DNA from: a virus
DNA length: 38,795 bases
Direction: 5' to 3' (one strand)
UHGV virus genome: UHGV-0423091
Below the pieces are notes generated by a model, which saw nothing but the letters and a program-made list of their open reading frames with translations, had not been told where the DNA came from and ran no database searches. A program made the position numbers and the translations under genes. This document shows positions 2,939 through 34,174 of this stretch, piece by piece (the stretch's first letter is position 1; every line of letters starts with the position of its first letter).

Positions 2939-3483
2939 TATAATCCTCCGGGTAATCTGGTTCCTGCTGCTGCCCCGATTGGCGCAGGGGTGCTTTGAGT
3001 AAACGGACTCCACGTCCCACCAAACATCTGGTACGCACCGTATGCCTTCAGAGGCGCAGTGAGCAATGTTGTTGCTGCTCCCACATTCCCCTGTTTACGG
3101 GCTGAACTGGCTTCTGCTTTATAGTTGGCAGCCTGAACCTGATAACCGTAAGCCTCGCGTTGCGCGTTATTCACCGTCGTCAGAGAATCAAGAGCGCCAA
3201 ACTGGGCAGTGTCGCCAAATATATCCAGCGCGTTACCTGTAGATAAATCAGCGCCGGTAGCCCCCATTGTCGCCGCCTGTGTACCAAGCCGCTGTCGGGT
3301 CTCTCTGCGACGTTGCTCAGCTTCAGCGTTACCTCTGTTTATTGCATCATTTGCCTGAGTAGTGGCTATATCTGCGTTAGCTTCTGCAACCTTCGAGGCA
3401 TACTTTCCCTGTTGGTACTGGGTGTATGCCTGAATGCCACTCATGGCGAGCATTGCACCACCAGCAATAACCGGATCGCACAT
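2938..3483 (-). CDS. internal virion protein, 181 aa, N-terminal hydrophobic segment, Ala/Gln-rich
   Basis: Track ORF; GGAG SD 8 nt upstream of ATG 3483; start overlaps upstream stop; composition typical of small ejection/internal proteins. Confidence 0.5.
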   Translation of the reverse strand: MCDPVIAGGAMLAMSGIQAYTQYQQGKYASKVAEANADIATTQANDAINRGNAEAEQRRRETRQRLGTQAATMGATGADLSTGNALDIFGDTAQFGALDSLTTVNNAQREAYGYQVQAANYKAEASSARKQGNVGAATTLLTAPLKAYGAYQMFGGTWSPFTQSTPAPIGAAAGTRLPGGL

Positions 3484-12551: not shown

Positions 12552-12628
12552 GTGGCATTAGCTCAGTTGGACAGAGCAACCGCCTTCTAAGCGGTTGGTC
12601 GCAGGTTCGAATCCTGCATGCCACGCCA
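12552..12628 (+). tRNA. tRNA-Arg (anticodon TCT, reads AGA/AGG), argU-like
   Basis: Hand-folded cloverleaf: 7-bp acceptor GTGGCAT/ATGCCAC, D-arm GCTC...GAGC, anticodon stem ACCGC/GCGGT with loop CTTCTAA, T-arm GCAGG-TTCGAAT-CCTGC, discriminator G and encoded CCA. Confidence 0.85.
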
Positions 12629-21184: not shown

Positions 21185-21769
21185 ATGAAAAGTATCCAGG
21201 ACGTCCGCAGGCAAAATCTCAACGACTTGATCGACCGTGAATTCAATGGTGTTCAGACGCGGATGGCAGAAAAACTTGGAACTCAGGCAAATCTGGTAAA
21301 CCGCTGGGCTCTTGGCAAGAAGGTTATCGGCGACCAGGTTGCACGAAAAATTGAAGCTGCCGCCAATAAACCCCGTAACTGGCTTGATATTGATCGCTCG
21401 CTTTCTCAGGAGGGTTTTCAGCCTGTCGGCCCGAGCGATATAGGTCAGCTGGCGGCTCACAACCTGGAACGCTGGATGAGCGAAAGCCGCGACCTTTCAA
21501 CGCAGGGAAAACTACACCGCGCATCCGGCGTCGCCCAGGTGACAATCAGCCGCCTGTTAAACAATGAGGTCAGCGTTTCCATTTCCACCCTGGAGAATGT
21601 TGCATCCGCATTCGGGCGTCACGGCTATGAATTACTGATTCACCCGCACGACCCTGCGACCATCAACTATGATCGCTCGCGCTACGCATTGTTACCCGAA
21701 ACCGAGAAAGCAAAGATCGAAAGTTACATTGAATTTGTCATCAACCAGAACGAAAAAAACAAACAATAA
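21185..21769 (+). CDS. phage repressor (CI role), 194 aa, two HTH-like segments, no S24 peptidase domain
   Basis: Divergent from the Cro-like gene; HTH-like segments near residues 25-45 and 110-135; no Ala-Gly/Ser-Lys autocleavage module; no SD (leaderless-like start). Confidence 0.65.
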   Translation: MKSIQDVRRQNLNDLIDREFNGVQTRMAEKLGTQANLVNRWALGKKVIGDQVARKIEAAANKPRNWLDIDRSLSQEGFQPVGPSDIGQLAAHNLERWMSESRDLSTQGKLHRASGVAQVTISRLLNNEVSVSISTLENVASAFGRHGYELLIHPHDPATINYDRSRYALLPETEKAKIESYIEFVINQNEKNKQ

Positions 21770-29159: not shown

Positions 29160-31766
29160 TTATTTCCTGCAAACTCCAGATGATGTTAATCCATCAAAAA
29201 TAACCTGCACTCTGGCAATAACAACATCAACTCCAGAAGTCGTTTCACTTGCATAACCAAGTTTTATTTTAGATACAATATCCTGAGTAAGTTCAGATAT
29301 TTCAGTTTCTGCAATGTTACCAGAGGCCATGTGATTATCGTATGCCATAGAATGAATTCCATTATTGACATCGATTGAACTAGTATGTTTGTGAAAAATA
29401 GATGGGTTTACCTGAAACGAATTTGAACCGATAAGATCAGAAGATACTCCATTCATCACTGCAGTACAGCGTGGAATATTATTATCGGTTATTGTCATAT
29501 GCAGACGGTTACCAGTTAACCCCTCACCAAGTGTGACATAATACGCCAATTCTCCACCTGCATATTGTTTCCCCTCAACAATAACAGTAATCCCTCTTAA
29601 TTTCTGATTAGCTAGCAAAAACTTATTACTGTCTATATAGCATTTATTTGCGGAACCAAAAACAGCCCCTTCTAAAATATCTGATGAATAGGAATAAATA
29701 AGGTCACCTGAAACAAAGGAAAGAATATCAGATACGTTTCCTTTTGTAGATAAGTTAGGAGAATAGCTATTAACTATTTCATATTGTCCTGTGATAAAAT
29801 CAAGGTAAACGCCATCAGTTTTCATCTCTTTAAAGAAAATGCTATTAAAGCATCCATCAAGAACCGGTGGATATATTCTAGAGCTTGCATAAGCTGTTGG
29901 GTGATTCTTATTATTACCACTACCAGGCGAATAAACATCTTCGTTAGTCATTGACTTTTTAAGCTTAACAGGAATCATCGGCTGCATATCAATTTTGCAG
30001 TTCCCTGAACCACCGATGCGAGGATAAAATAAACCACCAAACCTTACAATATTACTACTGAATAGTATTTCGTTATCGTTAAGTGTTATCTCAACGAAGT
30101 TTCCAATAAGTTTAAATTCAACTGAAAACAAACCAAGTGGAGCAGATAATTTAACAATATTGCGCATAAAAACACCTACAGTCCCTGTTGATGCAGTATA
30201 GTGTGTGGTTTCAAAGGCAGAGCCTGTATATTTCAAGTTAATGAAATTATTATGGTATGAAGACAATTGAAATTGAATCCCAGAACTAAGGATTTCAATA
30301 TCTACAAATTGAATCCTTACGGAGTAAGCATATGATAAATCTTCATATTCATAAGGCAATGTAACATCTTTTGAAATAGTTGCCCTCACATAATTACCAG
30401 AAACCACATCAATCCCATCACGTACAGCATTAAAGTAACGATTAAAATCAATAAGCCCAGCGCCAACATACTGCGCATATGACCGAGTCCATCCTGCCAT
30501 TGCGTTTCGTCCATTCTGAGCTTCTAAACTGCTAAATTCAGAGTCACTTGTGGTACTTGATGGGAGGATATTTGTACAAAAAACAATTTCAGGCATTGAA
30601 GTAATATCATTCAGTTCAGCCATCAATTTAAAAAAAGTTTTCTGCGGGAAGTTACCAACATCCCAACCATCTCCGTCATTCATGCCAAAAGCAATAATAA
30701 CAACATCAGGGTTAATATCACGAATGTAATCAATCCAGCGTCTGTTCGTGTCTGAATACCATGGGTACTGTGAGTTATAAGAAGTAATTGCTGGTGTATC
30801 TTTTCCAAGGTCATAGTACCTCATTCCACCAATTGCTCTGTTAAATAAAGTAGAACTTGGGAATTTCTCTTGCAAAACTCTCTTAAGATGAGCGGCAAAA
30901 ATGCTTGATCGATCCACTGTGCTTATATTATATGGGGCACTTAAGCTGTCACCAACTAACACTATTTTTGAGTTAGGCCTTGATAATCTCTCAAGTGTTT
31001 TAGATGTGACTAAACTGCATGAATTAATGAACTGAGCACTATTTAGTGTCTGTTCAAGTGTATCACCAAATCTGGTACCAACGTATGATGATCCGTTGAC
31101 ACTTGCTAGCTTAAGGCATAAATCAGCAGTATCTGTAATTGAAAAAATAGGAACAGGACGTCCTAAACTGTCATACCCCTGAATTGAGTTTGCCCTAGAA
31201 GATGCTGATGCCATTTCGCTTACTATCTCAGGGAAGCGGAGTGTTTTAGATATGTTGCTGTTAATAACTCCTTTGATAGATGAGTCTGTATATTTCTTCG
31301 TGGAAGCGTCCTGAGGAAATAATGGATCATCAAGGTTACGAATACGATTGCCTAGTGCATCGTAGTAAGTGGCACTAAATGATGGTTTACGAAGAGCCAG
31401 CCGAGCCATGCTTTTGACTAACTGGATCAGCATCGTTAGCTTATCAAAAGCATCCTCATGCACTTCCGCAAAGAACTTACCCTGATTGCGCAGATCAGTT
31501 TCCTGTGTAACCGGTAGCTCTCGTGATATAGAAATCTTATAGCCATTGGCCAACGCCTTCGACAATATTACATTTCCACCATTGTATCCTCCGGCCCCGG
31601 TAACTATATAATCAGTATCAAGAGTCAGTACGGTGATATTTTCATGAATATCAACAACCTGCACAATCAAATCAGATTTATTGAAAACCCTAAAGGCATA
31701 CGGAAACGATGTCGTAACGCCGTTACCGGTGTATTCGTTGTGGTCAACTTCGGTTGAGACCGTCAT
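29160..31766 (-). CDS. tailspike / tail fibre with T7 gp17-like N-terminal anchor and central SGNH (GDSL) esterase-like domain, 868 aa
   Basis: N-terminus YTGNGVTTSFPYAFRVF...LIVQVV resembles the T7 tail-fibre anchor; GDSL block (IVLVGDSLS, residues ~268-276, DNA ~30939-30965) and GxND block (AFGMNDG, ~358-364); AT-rich C-terminal half; GGAG SD. Confidence 0.8.
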   Translation of the reverse strand: MTVSTEVDHNEYTGNGVTTSFPYAFRVFNKSDLIVQVVDIHENITVLTLDTDYIVTGAGGYNGGNVILSKALANGYKISISRELPVTQETDLRNQGKFFAEVHEDAFDKLTMLIQLVKSMARLALRKPSFSATYYDALGNRIRNLDDPLFPQDASTKKYTDSSIKGVINSNISKTLRFPEIVSEMASASSRANSIQGYDSLGRPVPIFSITDTADLCLKLASVNGSSYVGTRFGDTLEQTLNSAQFINSCSLVTSKTLERLSRPNSKIVLVGDSLSAPYNISTVDRSSIFAAHLKRVLQEKFPSSTLFNRAIGGMRYYDLGKDTPAITSYNSQYPWYSDTNRRWIDYIRDINPDVVIIAFGMNDGDGWDVGNFPQKTFFKLMAELNDITSMPEIVFCTNILPSSTTSDSEFSSLEAQNGRNAMAGWTRSYAQYVGAGLIDFNRYFNAVRDGIDVVSGNYVRATISKDVTLPYEYEDLSYAYSVRIQFVDIEILSSGIQFQLSSYHNNFINLKYTGSAFETTHYTASTGTVGVFMRNIVKLSAPLGLFSVEFKLIGNFVEITLNDNEILFSSNIVRFGGLFYPRIGGSGNCKIDMQPMIPVKLKKSMTNEDVYSPGSGNNKNHPTAYASSRIYPPVLDGCFNSIFFKEMKTDGVYLDFITGQYEIVNSYSPNLSTKGNVSDILSFVSGDLIYSYSSDILEGAVFGSANKCYIDSNKFLLANQKLRGITVIVEGKQYAGGELAYYVTLGEGLTGNRLHMTITDNNIPRCTAVMNGVSSDLIGSNSFQVNPSIFHKHTSSIDVNNGIHSMAYDNHMASGNIAETEISELTQDIVSKIKLGYASETTSGVDVVIARVQVIFDGLTSSGVCRK

Positions 31767-31870
31767 GTTAAATCTCCAGATAGTCGCAGCACCCGTTGCG
31801 CCGCATATCTGGTTATTCTATTACCTGAAAAACCATATATGTATAGAAAGACTATAAATACCAATAGATA

Positions 31871-31885
31871 TTACCTTTATGGTAA
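31871..31885. promoter_or_regulatory. operator-like palindrome TTACC-tttat-GGTAA
   Basis: Perfect copy in the divergent control region between the tailspike and antirepressor operons. Confidence 0.45.
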
Positions 31886-31924
31886 TTTGCAAAACGTGCT
31901 GGATAGCAAACAAATTATTTGATA

Positions 31925-31940
31925 CTGTATAAATATACAG
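31925..31940. promoter_or_regulatory. LexA (SOS) box CTGTATAAATATACAG
   Basis: Perfect CTGT-N8-ACAG with AT-rich spacer, flanked TA...TT, 22 bp upstream of ATG 31962. Confidence 0.7.
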
Positions 31941-31961
31941 TTATTGCATGGAGAAGATAAG

Positions 31962-32219
31962 ATGCAGCGGTATCACTATCCACTGGAAGACGGATTTACC
32001 GAAAGGATTCACACGCCGGGAGGCGTCAGGTCACTGGTGGAGGGATCGCACTTGATGAAATTACTCCGGGATCTCGATAAGGATGGATTTAATGTCGATG
32101 GCCCACTTGCCGAACTGACTGCACTGATTAACTACGTCACCAGCTCACAGATGTCTATGCAGGATCTGCAAACACATCTCGACTATTGTGCCGAACAATT
32201 ACGAAAACAAACCAGATAA
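31962..32219 (+). CDS. small protein, 85 aa, paralogous to the C-terminal domain of the downstream antirepressor; candidate small antirepressor
   Basis: Track ORF trimmed to ATG 31962 (GGAGAAG SD); by-eye alignment to antirepressor residues ~150-225 (IHxPxGV...E.S.LM.LL..L..DG..V.G..AEL...DxQTH). Confidence 0.55.
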   Translation: MQRYHYPLEDGFTERIHTPGGVRSLVEGSHLMKLLRDLDKDGFNVDGPLAELTALINYVTSSQMSMQDLQTHLDYCAEQLRKQTR

Positions 32220-32222
32220 GGT

Positions 32223-32265
32223 TTGCAATTACCAAGTGGAGTGCTTATATTTACCATTGCGGTAA
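32223..32265 (+). promoter_or_regulatory. sigma70-like promoter (TTGCAA-N17-TATATT) with operator-like site TTACC-attgc-GGTAA (32251-32265) over the start region
   Basis: Near-consensus -35/-10 with 17-bp spacer; palindrome overlaps the -10 and predicted +1. Confidence 0.45.
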
Positions 32266-32532
32266 ATTTACATCGCACTCCTCTTGTGCCATAGTAATCG
32301 GGCACTGGCAAAATCCAGTGCCGGGATTGGCGTTCCGGATTACTACAGAGGCACATATGCCGCATAAGCGGTTTTTTTATGTGTAAAGCGCACCTATTCT
32401 ATGGTGGGCTGTGTGGGGGCACCGAAAGGTGCGCCGGGTTCCTTTGTAGCCGGTTACGCCAACCCTGCACAGTTCACCACCAACCGATTGGCGTCGGTAG
32501 TGGTGATTAACCTAACTACAAAGGTGATCACT

Positions 32533-33219
32533 ATGACTGCTAACGTAACCCCATCTGTTTTTCATTTTGAATCAGAAGCAACCATTCGAGCCATTGTTAT
32601 TGATGGAAATCCTTGGTTTGTTGCCAAAGACGTTATTAAAGCTCTTCAACTGACAAACCCCACTATGTCAATAAAATCTCTTGATGATGATGAAAGGGCT
32701 AAATTTAACTTAGGCCGTCAAGGCGAAACCAATATTATCAACGAGTCAGGCCTCTACACACTGATCCTCCGCTGCCGCGACGCAGTGACACCAGGCACTA
32801 TCCCCTACCGCTTTCGTAAATGGGTTACAGGTGAGGTTCTTCCTCAGATCCGCCGCACCGGAAGTTACATTAAAAACTCGCTCCCGCAGGAAGAACGCAT
32901 AAAGATGGTTGCCGACCAAGTAGCCAACGCCACGGCGTCAGCAGTGATGCAGGCAATGAAGATAGAGAACAAAACCTACAGTGCACCACTGAAGCCCGGC
33001 TACCGCAGCCTGATTCATTCGCCGTCTGGTGTTCTCGGCCTGACGGAGAACTCACTGCTGATGAATTTGCTGAACCAGTTACAGGAAGACGGGCATGACG
33101 TATCGGGCGCGGCGGCGGAGCTGACCACCATGTTCTGCTACATCGTCGGTGTGAGCAAATGCCTGCGTGATATCCAGACGCACGCGGAGTACATCAACGA
33201 CAAAGCAGGGTTCTTCTGA
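32533..33219 (+). CDS. antirepressor, Bro-N domain family, 228 aa
   Basis: Track ORF 32401..33219 trimmed to ATG 32533 (AAGGTG SD); N-terminal Bro-N-like segment IRAIVIDGNPWFVAKDV...LYTLILRC. Confidence 0.7.
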   Translation: MTANVTPSVFHFESEATIRAIVIDGNPWFVAKDVIKALQLTNPTMSIKSLDDDERAKFNLGRQGETNIINESGLYTLILRCRDAVTPGTIPYRFRKWVTGEVLPQIRRTGSYIKNSLPQEERIKMVADQVANATASAVMQAMKIENKTYSAPLKPGYRSLIHSPSGVLGLTENSLLMNLLNQLQEDGHDVSGAAAELTTMFCYIVGVSKCLRDIQTHAEYINDKAGFF

Positions 33220-33291
33220 CGGGCGGCGGCACAGGGATGTGCCTTTAAATAATTCTGTACAGATTGCAGACTGGGGGTGAATAGCGTACTA

Positions 33292-33306
33292 TTACCTTAA
33301 AGGTAA
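33292..33306. promoter_or_regulatory. operator-like palindrome TTACC-ttaaa-GGTAA upstream of the accessory module
   Basis: Perfect copy 43 bp upstream of ATG 33349. Confidence 0.45.
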
Positions 33307-33348
33307 ACCTGTTTTTATTTTATACCTGTAACTTACCGGAGATTAAAG

Positions 33349-33675
33349 ATGACAAAACTTGGATTCGTGATGAGAGGTCCGGTAAGAAGCGGAACTCATG
33401 CAAAGCGTAGCAAGAGTCGTATTTTTACTGGTAAGGTTGTAGCACGTAAATCAGCTATTGGCTCGTTCAATAGTGAAAATGCGGCATTGCGCCATATTTT
33501 TATCAGCACAAAGCCAAGAGCATCCGCTGATGTGCATACAATGACTATTCCTATCACAAAGAATATAAAGCGGATAAAAAAGCTCTCATCTGCAGAATCA
33601 AAAGAGATATCTTTCCGCCAGCTTAACTCATTAGAAACGCATATGAAGGAAGAGGAATTCGATGTTTTTGAGTGA
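33349..33675 (+). CDS. highly basic small protein, 108 aa (accessory module gene 1)
   Basis: GGAG SD 7 nt upstream; Lys/Arg-rich; AT-rich codon usage; overlaps the next gene by 14 bp. Confidence 0.5.
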   Translation: MTKLGFVMRGPVRSGTHAKRSKSRIFTGKVVARKSAIGSFNSENAALRHIFISTKPRASADVHTMTIPITKNIKRIKKLSSAESKEISFRQLNSLETHMKEEEFDVFE

Positions 33676-34174
33676 GTATAGCGGGAAGGTTATACCTACT
33701 GGTGAGTTTAAAACTGATGACTTTCTGATTTCGCTAAAAGATGCTTTTAAACAACACTGGCGTCATGGTCATCATCCTGATCTGGGAAAAGATACTCTTT
33801 TTGAAAGACCAGACGAAGTATTAGGTTTCCATCTCAGAAAGGTTCATGTCAATATTGGTGAATATGCATCATATTCATACTCATGTACTGAACAGTGTTG
33901 GGATGAGTGGTCATATGGATTGATTGATGAACAAGGAAATTACAGGCCAAAACCAACCAGTAACGCATATCTCATATATGCAGTCAATGAAATAAGAGAT
34001 GCAGCCTTACTAGCTTATTGGGACCCGCCCGCACACACCAAAGCTAACGCAAAAGTTTGGATGGATTCCGTATTGAATTTCACAAAATTATTTCATGAAC
34101 GAACGAATACAGCTCCACTTAGTAGAAATGTTTATCCGTGGGATTATTCGTACAAATCCAAAAAGCCTGCATAG
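33662..34174 (+). CDS. hypothetical protein, 170 aa, His/Trp/Tyr-rich (accessory module gene 2); loose by-eye resemblance to YafO-type toxins
   Basis: GAGG SD; translationally coupled to gene 1; resemblance is from memory and low-confidence. Confidence 0.5.
   Translation: MFLSEYSGKVIPTGEFKTDDFLISLKDAFKQHWRHGHHPDLGKDTLFERPDEVLGFHLRKVHVNIGEYASYSYSCTEQCWDEWSYGLIDEQGNYRPKPTSNAYLIYAVNEIRDAALLAYWDPPAHTKANAKVWMDSVLNFTKLFHERTNTAPLSRNVYPWDYSYKSKKPA

Follow-up and report, generated by a model that had tools for sequence, protein, structure and literature searches.

The window is the whole stretch of DNA analysed here, 38,795 nucleotides of a virus genome (UHGV-0423091), and the leader at 32220-32532 raises the question of how the antirepressor gene directly behind it is controlled. 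The window belongs to the phiV10/epsilon15-like (Uetakevirus) prophages of E. coli. Across this region, sequence identity is 93-97% with phiV10-like podoviruses of that genus and 79% with Enterobacter phage Tyrion, and the leader is matched in 941 of 5426 complete E. coli genomes. The leader is preceded by a tail fibre gene and an 85-aa gene (31962-32219) and is followed by ant, which encodes a 228-aa Bro-N antirepressor. The ant product matches Bro-N in Pfam (5e-20) and phrog_130, 'anti-repressor Ant' (8e-57). It is 82% identical overall to ORF4 of phage ZX5 and identical to it across most of the C-terminal part. ZX5 ORF4 overexpression moved the prophage titre from 10^9 to 10^6 and pushed lysogens towards lysis (PMC9782041). 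Judged by this homology, Ant is a working antirepressor in Uetakevirus. The regulated gene and its ribosome-binding site are as follows.

32533..33219, + strand: ant, the regulated gene (228-aa Bro-N antirepressor; ATG at 32533, stop at 33219)
32521-32527, + strand: ant Shine-Dalgarno sequence AAGGTGA (AAGGUGA in RNA)

A first-pass annotation, made from the letters alone, had described a structured leader between a small antirepressor paralog and the antirepressor. Both descriptions hold. The 85-aa protein is paralogous to the C-terminal domain of Ant (40% identity, E 1e-15), and 286 nt of leader fold at -125.5 kcal/mol compared to -89.6 ± 5.4 for shuffled sequences (z -6.69, 0/200 shuffles). 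The Shine-Dalgarno sequence that it placed after the hairpins is there, with the ATG at 32533 and not at 32534.

The whole window was scanned with Rfam, and three matches scored above the curated cut-offs. Two of them fall within the leader; each covers its full model and is on the + strand. The first is isrK (cut-off 50, model positions 1-77 of 77, E 1.9e-13) and the second is the C4 antisense RNA (cut-off 45, model positions 1-87 of 87, E 2.8e-15). Their parts are listed here.

32302..32378, + strand: IsrK small RNA, the a1/b1 region of the C4 system (RF01394, 71.2 bits)
32302-32321, + strand: IsrK hairpin 1 (its 8-bp stem was located at 32301-32322)
32322-32337, + strand: IsrK hairpin 2, followed by the single-stranded b1 stretch and then the terminator
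32359..32378, + strand: IsrK Rho-independent terminator, GCCGC-ATAA-GCGG plus seven T (terminator scan)
32397..32484, + strand: C4 antisense RNA (RF01695, 84 bits)
32402-32418 with 32463-32479, + strand: C4 closing stem, 17 bp
32419-32432, + strand: C4 hairpin 1 with a GNRA loop, GCACC-GAAA-GGTGC
32433-32454, + strand: C4 hairpin 2 with a 12-nt loop

The isrK match has the two 5' hairpins, single-stranded stretch, Rho-independent terminator and 77-nt length of its family, and it lies 5' of an STnc1160/orf45-type region and an antirepressor gene in a prophage. The C4 match has the 17-bp closing stem, two internal hairpins and single-stranded joint that characterize C4 RNAs. The three hairpins of the first-pass annotation fall into place within these two RNAs. 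Its 8-bp stem is IsrK hairpin 1, its attenuator-like GC stem with seven T is the IsrK terminator, which the terminator scan also recovered, and its GNRA-loop hairpin is the first internal hairpin of C4. It had missed the closing stem of C4, the recognition-loop hairpin 2 and both pairs of target sites. The IsrK terminator would act as an attenuator for C4 and ant. Partial read-through of this terminator was shown for the Gifsy-1 homolog (PMC4825925), and a promoter scan found no separate promoter between the terminator and C4.

Both folds were checked for covariation against related phages on an alignment of 13 sequences. The C4 fold is paired in 98.3% of cells with double changes in 12 of 27 pairs, and its covariation measures were reached in 0/500 shuffles. 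The IsrK fold is paired in 91.8% of cells with double changes in 9 of 17 pairs, and its measures were reached by 0 to 2 of 500 shuffles. Pairing fell to 34-50% of cells in controls in which the partners of either fold were slid; for C4, with its 3' partner moved, the range was 35-50%. The folding energy of the C4 stretch is strand specific (z -4.57 for the + strand, z 0.01 for the minus strand). G-U pairs dominate several C4 stem positions, and these are A-C mismatches on the other strand.

The upstream C4 target motif of Rfam, c4-a1b1 (RF03163), was recovered at 32289-32341 in a permissive scan with 39 bits, under its cut-off of 46.7. The a1/b1 complementarity that functionally defines this motif is present despite the low score. 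Because the score is under the cut-off, we rely on the isrK match and on the direct complementarity between the RNAs. The recognition elements of C4 and their targets are as follows.

32441..32449, + strand: b', CCUUUGUAG, in the 12-nt loop of C4 hairpin 2
32456..32462, + strand: a', ACGCCAA, in the single-stranded joint of C4
32327..32333, + strand: a1, UUGGCGU, in the loop and 3' arm of IsrK hairpin 2, the exact complement of a'
32343..32351, + strand: b1, CUACAGAGG, complementary to the b' loop over 9 nt, one of the pairs being G-U
32488..32494, + strand: a2, UUGGCGU, in the ant leader, a 7/7-nt match to a'
32516..32524, + strand: b2, CUACAAAGG, a 9/9-nt match to b', at -17 to -9 from the ATG and overlapping the ant Shine-Dalgarno sequence

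As in other members of the C4 family, a' and b' are complementary to a1 and b1 upstream and to a2 and b2 downstream on the same transcript, and the next gene downstream has its ribosome-binding site overlapped by b2. The ant gene starts 8 nt past b2. A target combining a and b elements was not found elsewhere in the window.

The complementarities were scored in 13 loci, consisting of the window, ten phage loci (phiV10, Tyrion, phiv142-3, Ayreon, SfV, IdasGreatGrand, Hafnia yong2, Stx2-1717 (Stx-1717 below), 118970_sal3 and phiP27), Gifsy-1 and P1. The order isrK, gap, C4, a2 to b2, gene is common to the ten phage loci, Gifsy-1 and P1, with c4-a1b1 replacing isrK in P1. The gap from isrK to C4 is 23-25 nt in the ten other phage loci compared to 18 nt in the window. 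The b' loop has 12 different sequences among the 13 loci, and the cognate b1 and b2 track it in nearly every locus; the phiV10-type b2, for example, is CUAAAAGG compared to CUACAAAGG in the window. The mean run complementary to b' is 7.9 for cognate b1 and 8.8 for cognate b2, compared to 4.9 and 5.4 for the non-cognate sites. The a' heptamer occurs in four forms and matches a1 in 13/13 loci and a2 in 12/13. Pairing of the b elements is weaker in Stx-1717 (6-7 nt), Gifsy-1 is also among the weakest, and IdasGreatGrand combines weaker b pairing with a b2 that lies within the coding region. The position of b2 is nearly fixed. In 9 of 13 loci its last position is -9 relative to the start codon, and all 13 keep it within -22 to +11. 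Between a2 and b2 there are 20-26 nt in 12 of the 13 loci, with 21 nt in the window as in P1. Five further Uetakevirus loci were read by eye. They carry at least five a'/b' combinations in near-identical leaders, each with matched targets.

The duplex energy of the C4 segment from hairpin 2 to a' beats 500/500 shuffled targets when the partner is IsrK and 495/500 when it is the ant leader. The net gain in RNAcofold was -3 kcal/mol for C4 plus IsrK and -1 kcal/mol for C4 plus the ant leader, by a method that forbids loop-loop (pseudoknotted) contacts, so that this gain counts neither for nor against the pairing. The main evidence for the mechanism proposed below is the three-way co-variation of loop and targets, combined with the constant position that b2 takes on the ribosome-binding site. 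Family membership, the two folds, the co-varying complementarities and the placement of b2 on the ribosome-binding site are established here by sequence.

Two promoter-like sites and a palindrome precede IsrK.

32223..32251, + strand: upstream promoter-like site, TTGCAA-N17-TATATT (9/12 consensus positions)
32250..32266, no strand assigned: operator-like palindrome, TTTACC-ATTGC-GGTAAA, covering the upstream promoter's -10 and start and abutting the downstream -35
32267..32295, + strand: downstream promoter-like site, TTTACA-N17-CATAGT, with a TG extension, the probable IsrK promoter

The first-pass annotation had reported the upstream site as a near-consensus promoter with an operator-like palindrome over its start. 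The palindrome lies where it was described. The promoter is present, but 9 of 12 positions make it a fair match and not a near-consensus one, and it is probably the upstream member of a tandem pair whose downstream member was missed. The IsrK 5' end (32302) is 6 nt past the -10 of the downstream site. The same spacing is 6 nt in Gifsy-1, and in P1, counted from the end of the annotated P1c4 promoter, it is 5 nt. The downstream site is taken as the IsrK promoter because spacing and alignment agree with Gifsy-1 and P1, and it is probably homologous to the Gifsy-1 isrK promoter and the P1c4 promoter.

The core of the palindrome, TTACC-N5-GGTAA, occurs 16 times in the window compared to 0.8 times expected, mostly between the larger ORFs, and it clusters beside the gene for a 194-aa HTH protein (21185-21769). 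This protein has no peptidase S24 match in Pfam. The prophage repressor, for which the 194-aa HTH protein is a candidate, presumably binds the motif. In other Uetakevirus loci the arms of the palindrome are kept and the spacer varies, with one arm mismatch in PH444. Phage TL-2011b has an insertion in place of the upstream promoter and retains the palindrome, the downstream promoter and the remaining leader. The placement resembles that in P1, which has two c4 promoters and a C1 operator, Oc4, overlapping the upstream one. The ZX5 paper on Uetakevirus regulation describes neither the palindrome nor the leader RNAs (PMC9782041).

The leader is very probably an RNA immunity module of the P1/P7 immI type that holds ant untranslated in the lysogen. 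Transcription would start from one or both of the tandem promoters, with the operator-like palindrome between them. The terminator would stop most transcripts and yield the 77-nt IsrK RNA, and the read-through transcripts would bear C4, from which a stable RNA of about 80 nt would be cut out by analogy with P1. In P1, C4 is excised from a longer precursor by RNase P. The ACCA that follows the closing stem in the window (32479-32482) fits such processing, and the mature C4 is predicted to span about 32403-32482 and to end in this ACCA, with ends set by the annotated C4 of P1. Loop b' and joint a' of C4 would pair with b2 and a2 on the ant mRNA, and the Shine-Dalgarno sequence would be covered, which would keep the lysogen from translating Ant. 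P1 needs C4 to repress its ant fully (PMC8198154). Rho-dependent polarity may reinforce the repression of ant, as in P1; the translational-coupling and Rho-polarity step of P1 cannot be transferred unchanged, because the window has no icd. IsrK, through a1 and b1, would compete for C4, either free or still within the read-through transcript, and a rise in IsrK would release ant translation, as was shown in Gifsy-1. Ant would then inactivate the prophage repressor.

Several of these steps are modelled on the homologs, namely how the RNAs would be processed, that they would act in trans, which way IsrK would shift ant expression and that the repressor would bind the palindrome. In Gifsy-1, IsrK supplied in trans lifts anrP translation 139-fold, mutations at paired positions acted as expected, and STnc1160 is processed from the isrK read-through transcript and depends on the isrK promoter (PMC4825925). 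Because the authors of that study explain the action of IsrK through translation of a leader ORF and not through titration of a C4-like repressor (PMC4825925), we only infer the sign and route of the IsrK effect in the window.

The comparison with P1/P7 immI is the closest in layout. The P1 record annotates a1, b1, C4, a2, b2 and a C1 operator at the c4 promoter. Both systems place, on one strand and in the same order, the promoter or promoters with a repressor operator, a1/b1, C4, a2/b2 and the regulated gene. In both, C4 has a long closing stem, two hairpins and a joint, with b' in the loop of hairpin 2 and a' in the joint. Each system has 21 nt between a2 and b2, with b2 running up to -9 relative to the start codon (b2 spans -19 to -9 from the icd ATG in P1 and -17 to -9 from the ant ATG in the window), and an antirepressor is the final target. 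The window differs from P1 in that it lacks icd and has no ORF between C4 and ant, so that C4 would target the ant ribosome-binding site directly. The presence of icd is a feature of the P1 operon and not of the C4 RNA family. The recognition elements differ as well (a' CUGUCAA and b' UCACUAAC in P1; a' ACGCCAA and b' CCUUUGUAG in the window). P1 makes in-frame Ant1 and Ant2 products, whereas no such pair is annotated for the 228-aa Bro-N Ant of the window, and P1 is a plasmid prophage, whereas the window is an integrated podovirus. The a1/b1 region of the window matches the isrK model and has a strong terminator, whereas P1 matches only c4-a1b1.

The Gifsy-1 locus of Salmonella has, like the window, a full-length IsrK with three hairpins, then a C4-family RNA, then an antirepressor gene. 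Gifsy-1 STnc1160 scores 69 bits as C4 in Rfam, and this C4 takes up the same place as the orf45/STnc1160 stretch that separates isrK from anrP. The a' element (ACGCCAA) and the 6-nt spacing from the -10 to the IsrK 5' end are the same as in the window. The b' element is different (UCGGUGAU compared to CCUUUGUAG), and so are its targets. The window also differs in having no antQ-type Q antiterminator gene 5' of the leader and no isrJ match 3' of ant in the Rfam scan of the whole window. The CI/seqA/seqC system of phage P4 is similar by description, with a stable RNA, processed out of an untranslated leader, that pairs with sites up- and downstream of itself on one transcript, and the IsrK authors call seqA a structural homolog of IsrK (PMC4825925). 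The outcome in P4 is different, namely premature transcription termination of the replication genes and not occlusion of an antirepressor ribosome-binding site.

These comparisons indicate that IsrK and the a1/b1 region of P1 are one and the same element. The link of IsrK/STnc1160 to C4/a1b1 was not found in the literature searched. The 2016 IsrK paper and a 2025 review do not make it, and the review handles IsrK/STnc1160 and C4 as separate systems. The link is implicit in public data, where the Rfam models overlap on these sequences.

The route proposed for Gifsy-1 was weighed as an explanation of the window itself. The read-through transcript would take up an inactive fold, IsrK in trans would open the ribosome-binding site of a leader ORF starting at AUG 32401, and ribosomes on this ORF would continue into ant, leaving free C4 a secondary role as a repressor. 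The minimum-energy fold of the leader does pair the middle of IsrK with a' and b' of C4 and resembles 'structure A' of the Gifsy-1 study (PMC4825925), whose mutational data back coupling through orf45. The AUG at 32401 is kept in all loci, and the window frame reads into ant. The ORF that follows this AUG is not conserved. It has 3 aa in phiv142-3, 14 aa in P1, 15 aa in Tyrion and 33-36 aa in phiV10, IdasGreatGrand and Stx-1717; it reaches 45 aa with an AUGA overlap in Gifsy-1 only, and in six loci, the window among them, it is joined to ant in frame. The AUGA overlap of the Gifsy-1 leader ORF with anrP has its counterpart in a window frame that runs into ant and is cut short in close relatives, and activation through an AUGA-coupled leader ORF (orf45), which belongs to the isrK family description, was not found in the window. 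There is also no SD-like sequence 5' of 32401, a 43-aa frame at 32379-32510 has no Pfam family, and the presence of b2 on the ant Shine-Dalgarno sequence in nearly every locus is left unexplained. Because the leader ORFs are conserved in neither frame nor length, orf45 coupling is unlikely as a general mechanism, even though the frame in the window happens to reach ant. As the reading of this locus, the positive switch is improbable.

A leader that acts purely in cis would need only an attenuator and a hairpin that sequesters the ribosome-binding site in response to a signal, with no RNA acting in trans. The terminator at 32359-32378 would serve as the attenuator, and the isolated ant initiation region folds on itself, with GUGGUGAU paired to AUCACUAU in a hairpin at the start codon (z -3.96). 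This arrangement leaves unexplained the independently folding, tRNA-like domain of 80 nt that is conserved from P1 to Gifsy-1, and it leaves unexplained the three-way co-variation of loop and targets across up to 190 nt. The homologs act in trans, as seen in the P1 C4 sites annotated on the icd-ant mRNA and in Gifsy-1 IsrK expressed from a plasmid. There is accordingly very little probability left for a purely cis-acting leader. The first-pass annotation had suggested a cis-regulatory RNA, a reading that gives way to two known same-strand RNAs with loop-to-target pairing.

The stretch could instead be coding, either as a 272-aa ORF from 32401 that makes a long Ant isoform or as a gene of 43 aa at 32379-32510. 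These ORFs are present in the window, and GenBank records place CDSs over the C4 region as an 'Ash family protein' (yong2 and ZX5), an 'immunity region' (Ayreon) and SfV orf37. Frame and length vary even among the closest relatives, ATG 32379 is missing in 6 of 13 loci, substitutions in the stretch keep base pairs, and the 43-aa ORF has no Pfam family. Both ORFs were rejected as coding on length, frame and, for the 43-aa ORF, the missing family, and a protein product of either kind is highly improbable.

P22 sar is a cis-antisense RNA proper, read from the strand opposite ant and crossing the ant start. P22 is the textbook example of an ant gene under antisense control, and the P22 system and the window have in common that an antisense RNA limits antirepressor synthesis. 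A short opposite-strand RNA of this type, pairing with ant mRNA in cis, has next to no chance of operating in the window, where no tool result backs it, no minus-strand promoter-like site was found in 31700-33400, the minus strand of the C4 region folds as shuffled sequence does (z 0.01), the helices are rich in G-U pairs, the T-run of the terminator is on the + strand and the Rfam matches are on the + strand only; a sar-type RNA was rejected on these grounds. The first-pass annotation was right that the antirepressor is under RNA-based leader control, and its analogy with sar is the part that does not stand.

The P1/P7 immI-type reading makes this leader an ordinary, unannotated copy of the known C4 plus IsrK switch and not a new element. 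Its departures from the P1 operon (no icd) and from Gifsy-1 (no orf45 coupling) are variations within a known kind, and nothing known about how the C4 system works is altered. The RNAs are absent from the phiV10, Tyrion, ZX5 and RefSeq records, and some phage records place CDSs over C4 instead. The phiV10 record has only a 'terminator' and a Bro-N protein here, and a RefSeq E. coli genome sharing 99% identity along the leader has no RNA annotated. The module is present in the Stx-converting phage loci examined, and it probably helps to set spontaneous and stress-triggered induction in many strains. The collected loop and target variants illustrate how immunity specificity can shift through coordinated changes at three sites.

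Control of ant may involve more than the leader. A LexA box (31923-31942) lies at the 85-aa gene; a scan for sigma-70 promoters near it returned none at 9/12 positions or better and no convincing placement. It is conceivable, if somewhat doubtful, that the LexA-box-controlled 85-aa protein, the operator between tandem promoters and the switch formed by IsrK, C4 and the targets make up one undescribed induction circuit in these E. coli Uetakevirus prophages. No terminator was found between the 85-aa gene and the leader, so in such a circuit SOS-induced transcripts of the 85-aa gene would bring in further a1/b1 decoy RNA, which could free Ant. The codes formed by a' and b', with their five or more combinations among near-identical phages, would then define heteroimmunity classes.

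A conserved GGUGGUG(A) element, GUGGUGAU, lies at window positions 32498-32507, a few nucleotides 3' of a2 (one site of the C4 target pair at the ant ribosome-binding site), and every related locus has an equivalent. The 3' strand of the closing stem of the C4 antisense RNA (UCACCACC) is complementary to the element, and the two change together in P1 (GGUAGCAGG versus CCUGCCACC) and likewise in phiP27. In the fold of 32485-32545 (z -3.96), the window element can also base-pair with AUCACUAU, which lies at the start codon of ant. GGUGGUG(A) may be an alternative-structure element in the unprocessed transcript.

P1 has a hairpin and T-run (CCGCAGAUUUCCGAUAUUGCGG UAUUUUU; L011, the P1 locus, 3278-3312) 3' of the a1/b1 region, the upstream C4 target pair. 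Because these features follow a1/b1, P1 may also produce an IsrK-like short RNA; the P1 a1/b1 region scores below the isrK model cut-off. In phage TL-2011b, a 1.1-kb insertion (L015, the TL-2011b locus, 742-1830) separates the leader from the 85-aa gene; the insertion has its end point directly upstream of the palindrome. The upstream promoter is lost, and the operator, downstream promoter, IsrK, and C4 are retained.

The isrK and C4 sequences are overlaid by annotated protein-coding genes in several GenBank phage records, labeled 'immunity region', 'transcriptional regulator' (SfV orf37), 'Ash family protein', and 'putative antirepressor'.

Coding sequences annotated across isrK/C4 in the phage records
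L003 1125-1961
L004 1125-1961
L007 988-1671
L009 831-1973
L010 1043-1702
L014 917-1030

These annotations look like artefacts arising from RNA genes that are stop-free and GC-rich. The true downstream gene in these records appears to begin directly 3' of b2, the other site of the ribosome-binding-site pair.

The 85-aa gene (31962-32219) is preceded, at a distance of 20 nt, by a perfect LexA box (TACTGTATAAATATACAGTT; window 31923-31942). The CTGT and ACAG arms of the box are constant in 8/8 related Uetakevirus loci, and its center is variable. The 85-aa protein matches phrog_450 and shares 40% identity with Ant across the 80 residues at the Ant C-terminus (E 1e-15). It looks like a free-standing antirepressor domain under SOS control, comparable to the Gifsy antirepressors and 186 Tum. 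The gene and the leader are not separated by a terminator.

The palindrome TTACC-N5-GGTAA occurs 16 times in the window compared to 0.8 expected.

TTACC-N5-GGTAA sites (15 nt each; window positions)
Sites 1-8: 12215, 12832, 15734, 15752, 18722, 18784, 20730, 21067
Sites 9-16: 21115, 21827, 21889, 26911, 28846, 31871, 32251, 33292

The majority fall in gaps between the larger ORFs, some have TTGACA -35-like hexamers immediately 5', and three flank the ant module. Most related Uetakevirus loci have the palindrome at corresponding positions. Sites 21067 and 21115 are immediately upstream of a 194-aa HTH repressor-like gene (21185-21769), whose product gave no match to Pfam peptidase S24. The sites are probably the operator set of the prophage repressor, dispersed like the scattered C1 operators of P1.

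Downstream of ant, a 108-aa ORF (phrog_5933, unknown function) precedes a 170-aa ORF (33662-34174, + strand) and its end overlaps the start of the latter; the two possibly form a toxin-antitoxin-like or moron pair. The 170-aa ORF matches the YafO toxin family weakly and below threshold (19.7 bits versus a cut-off of 25; E 9.5e-4). Elsewhere, the window encodes a tRNA (12552-12625, + strand; Rfam, 73 bits) with the anticodon loop CUUCUAA, read by eye as UCU (Arg).
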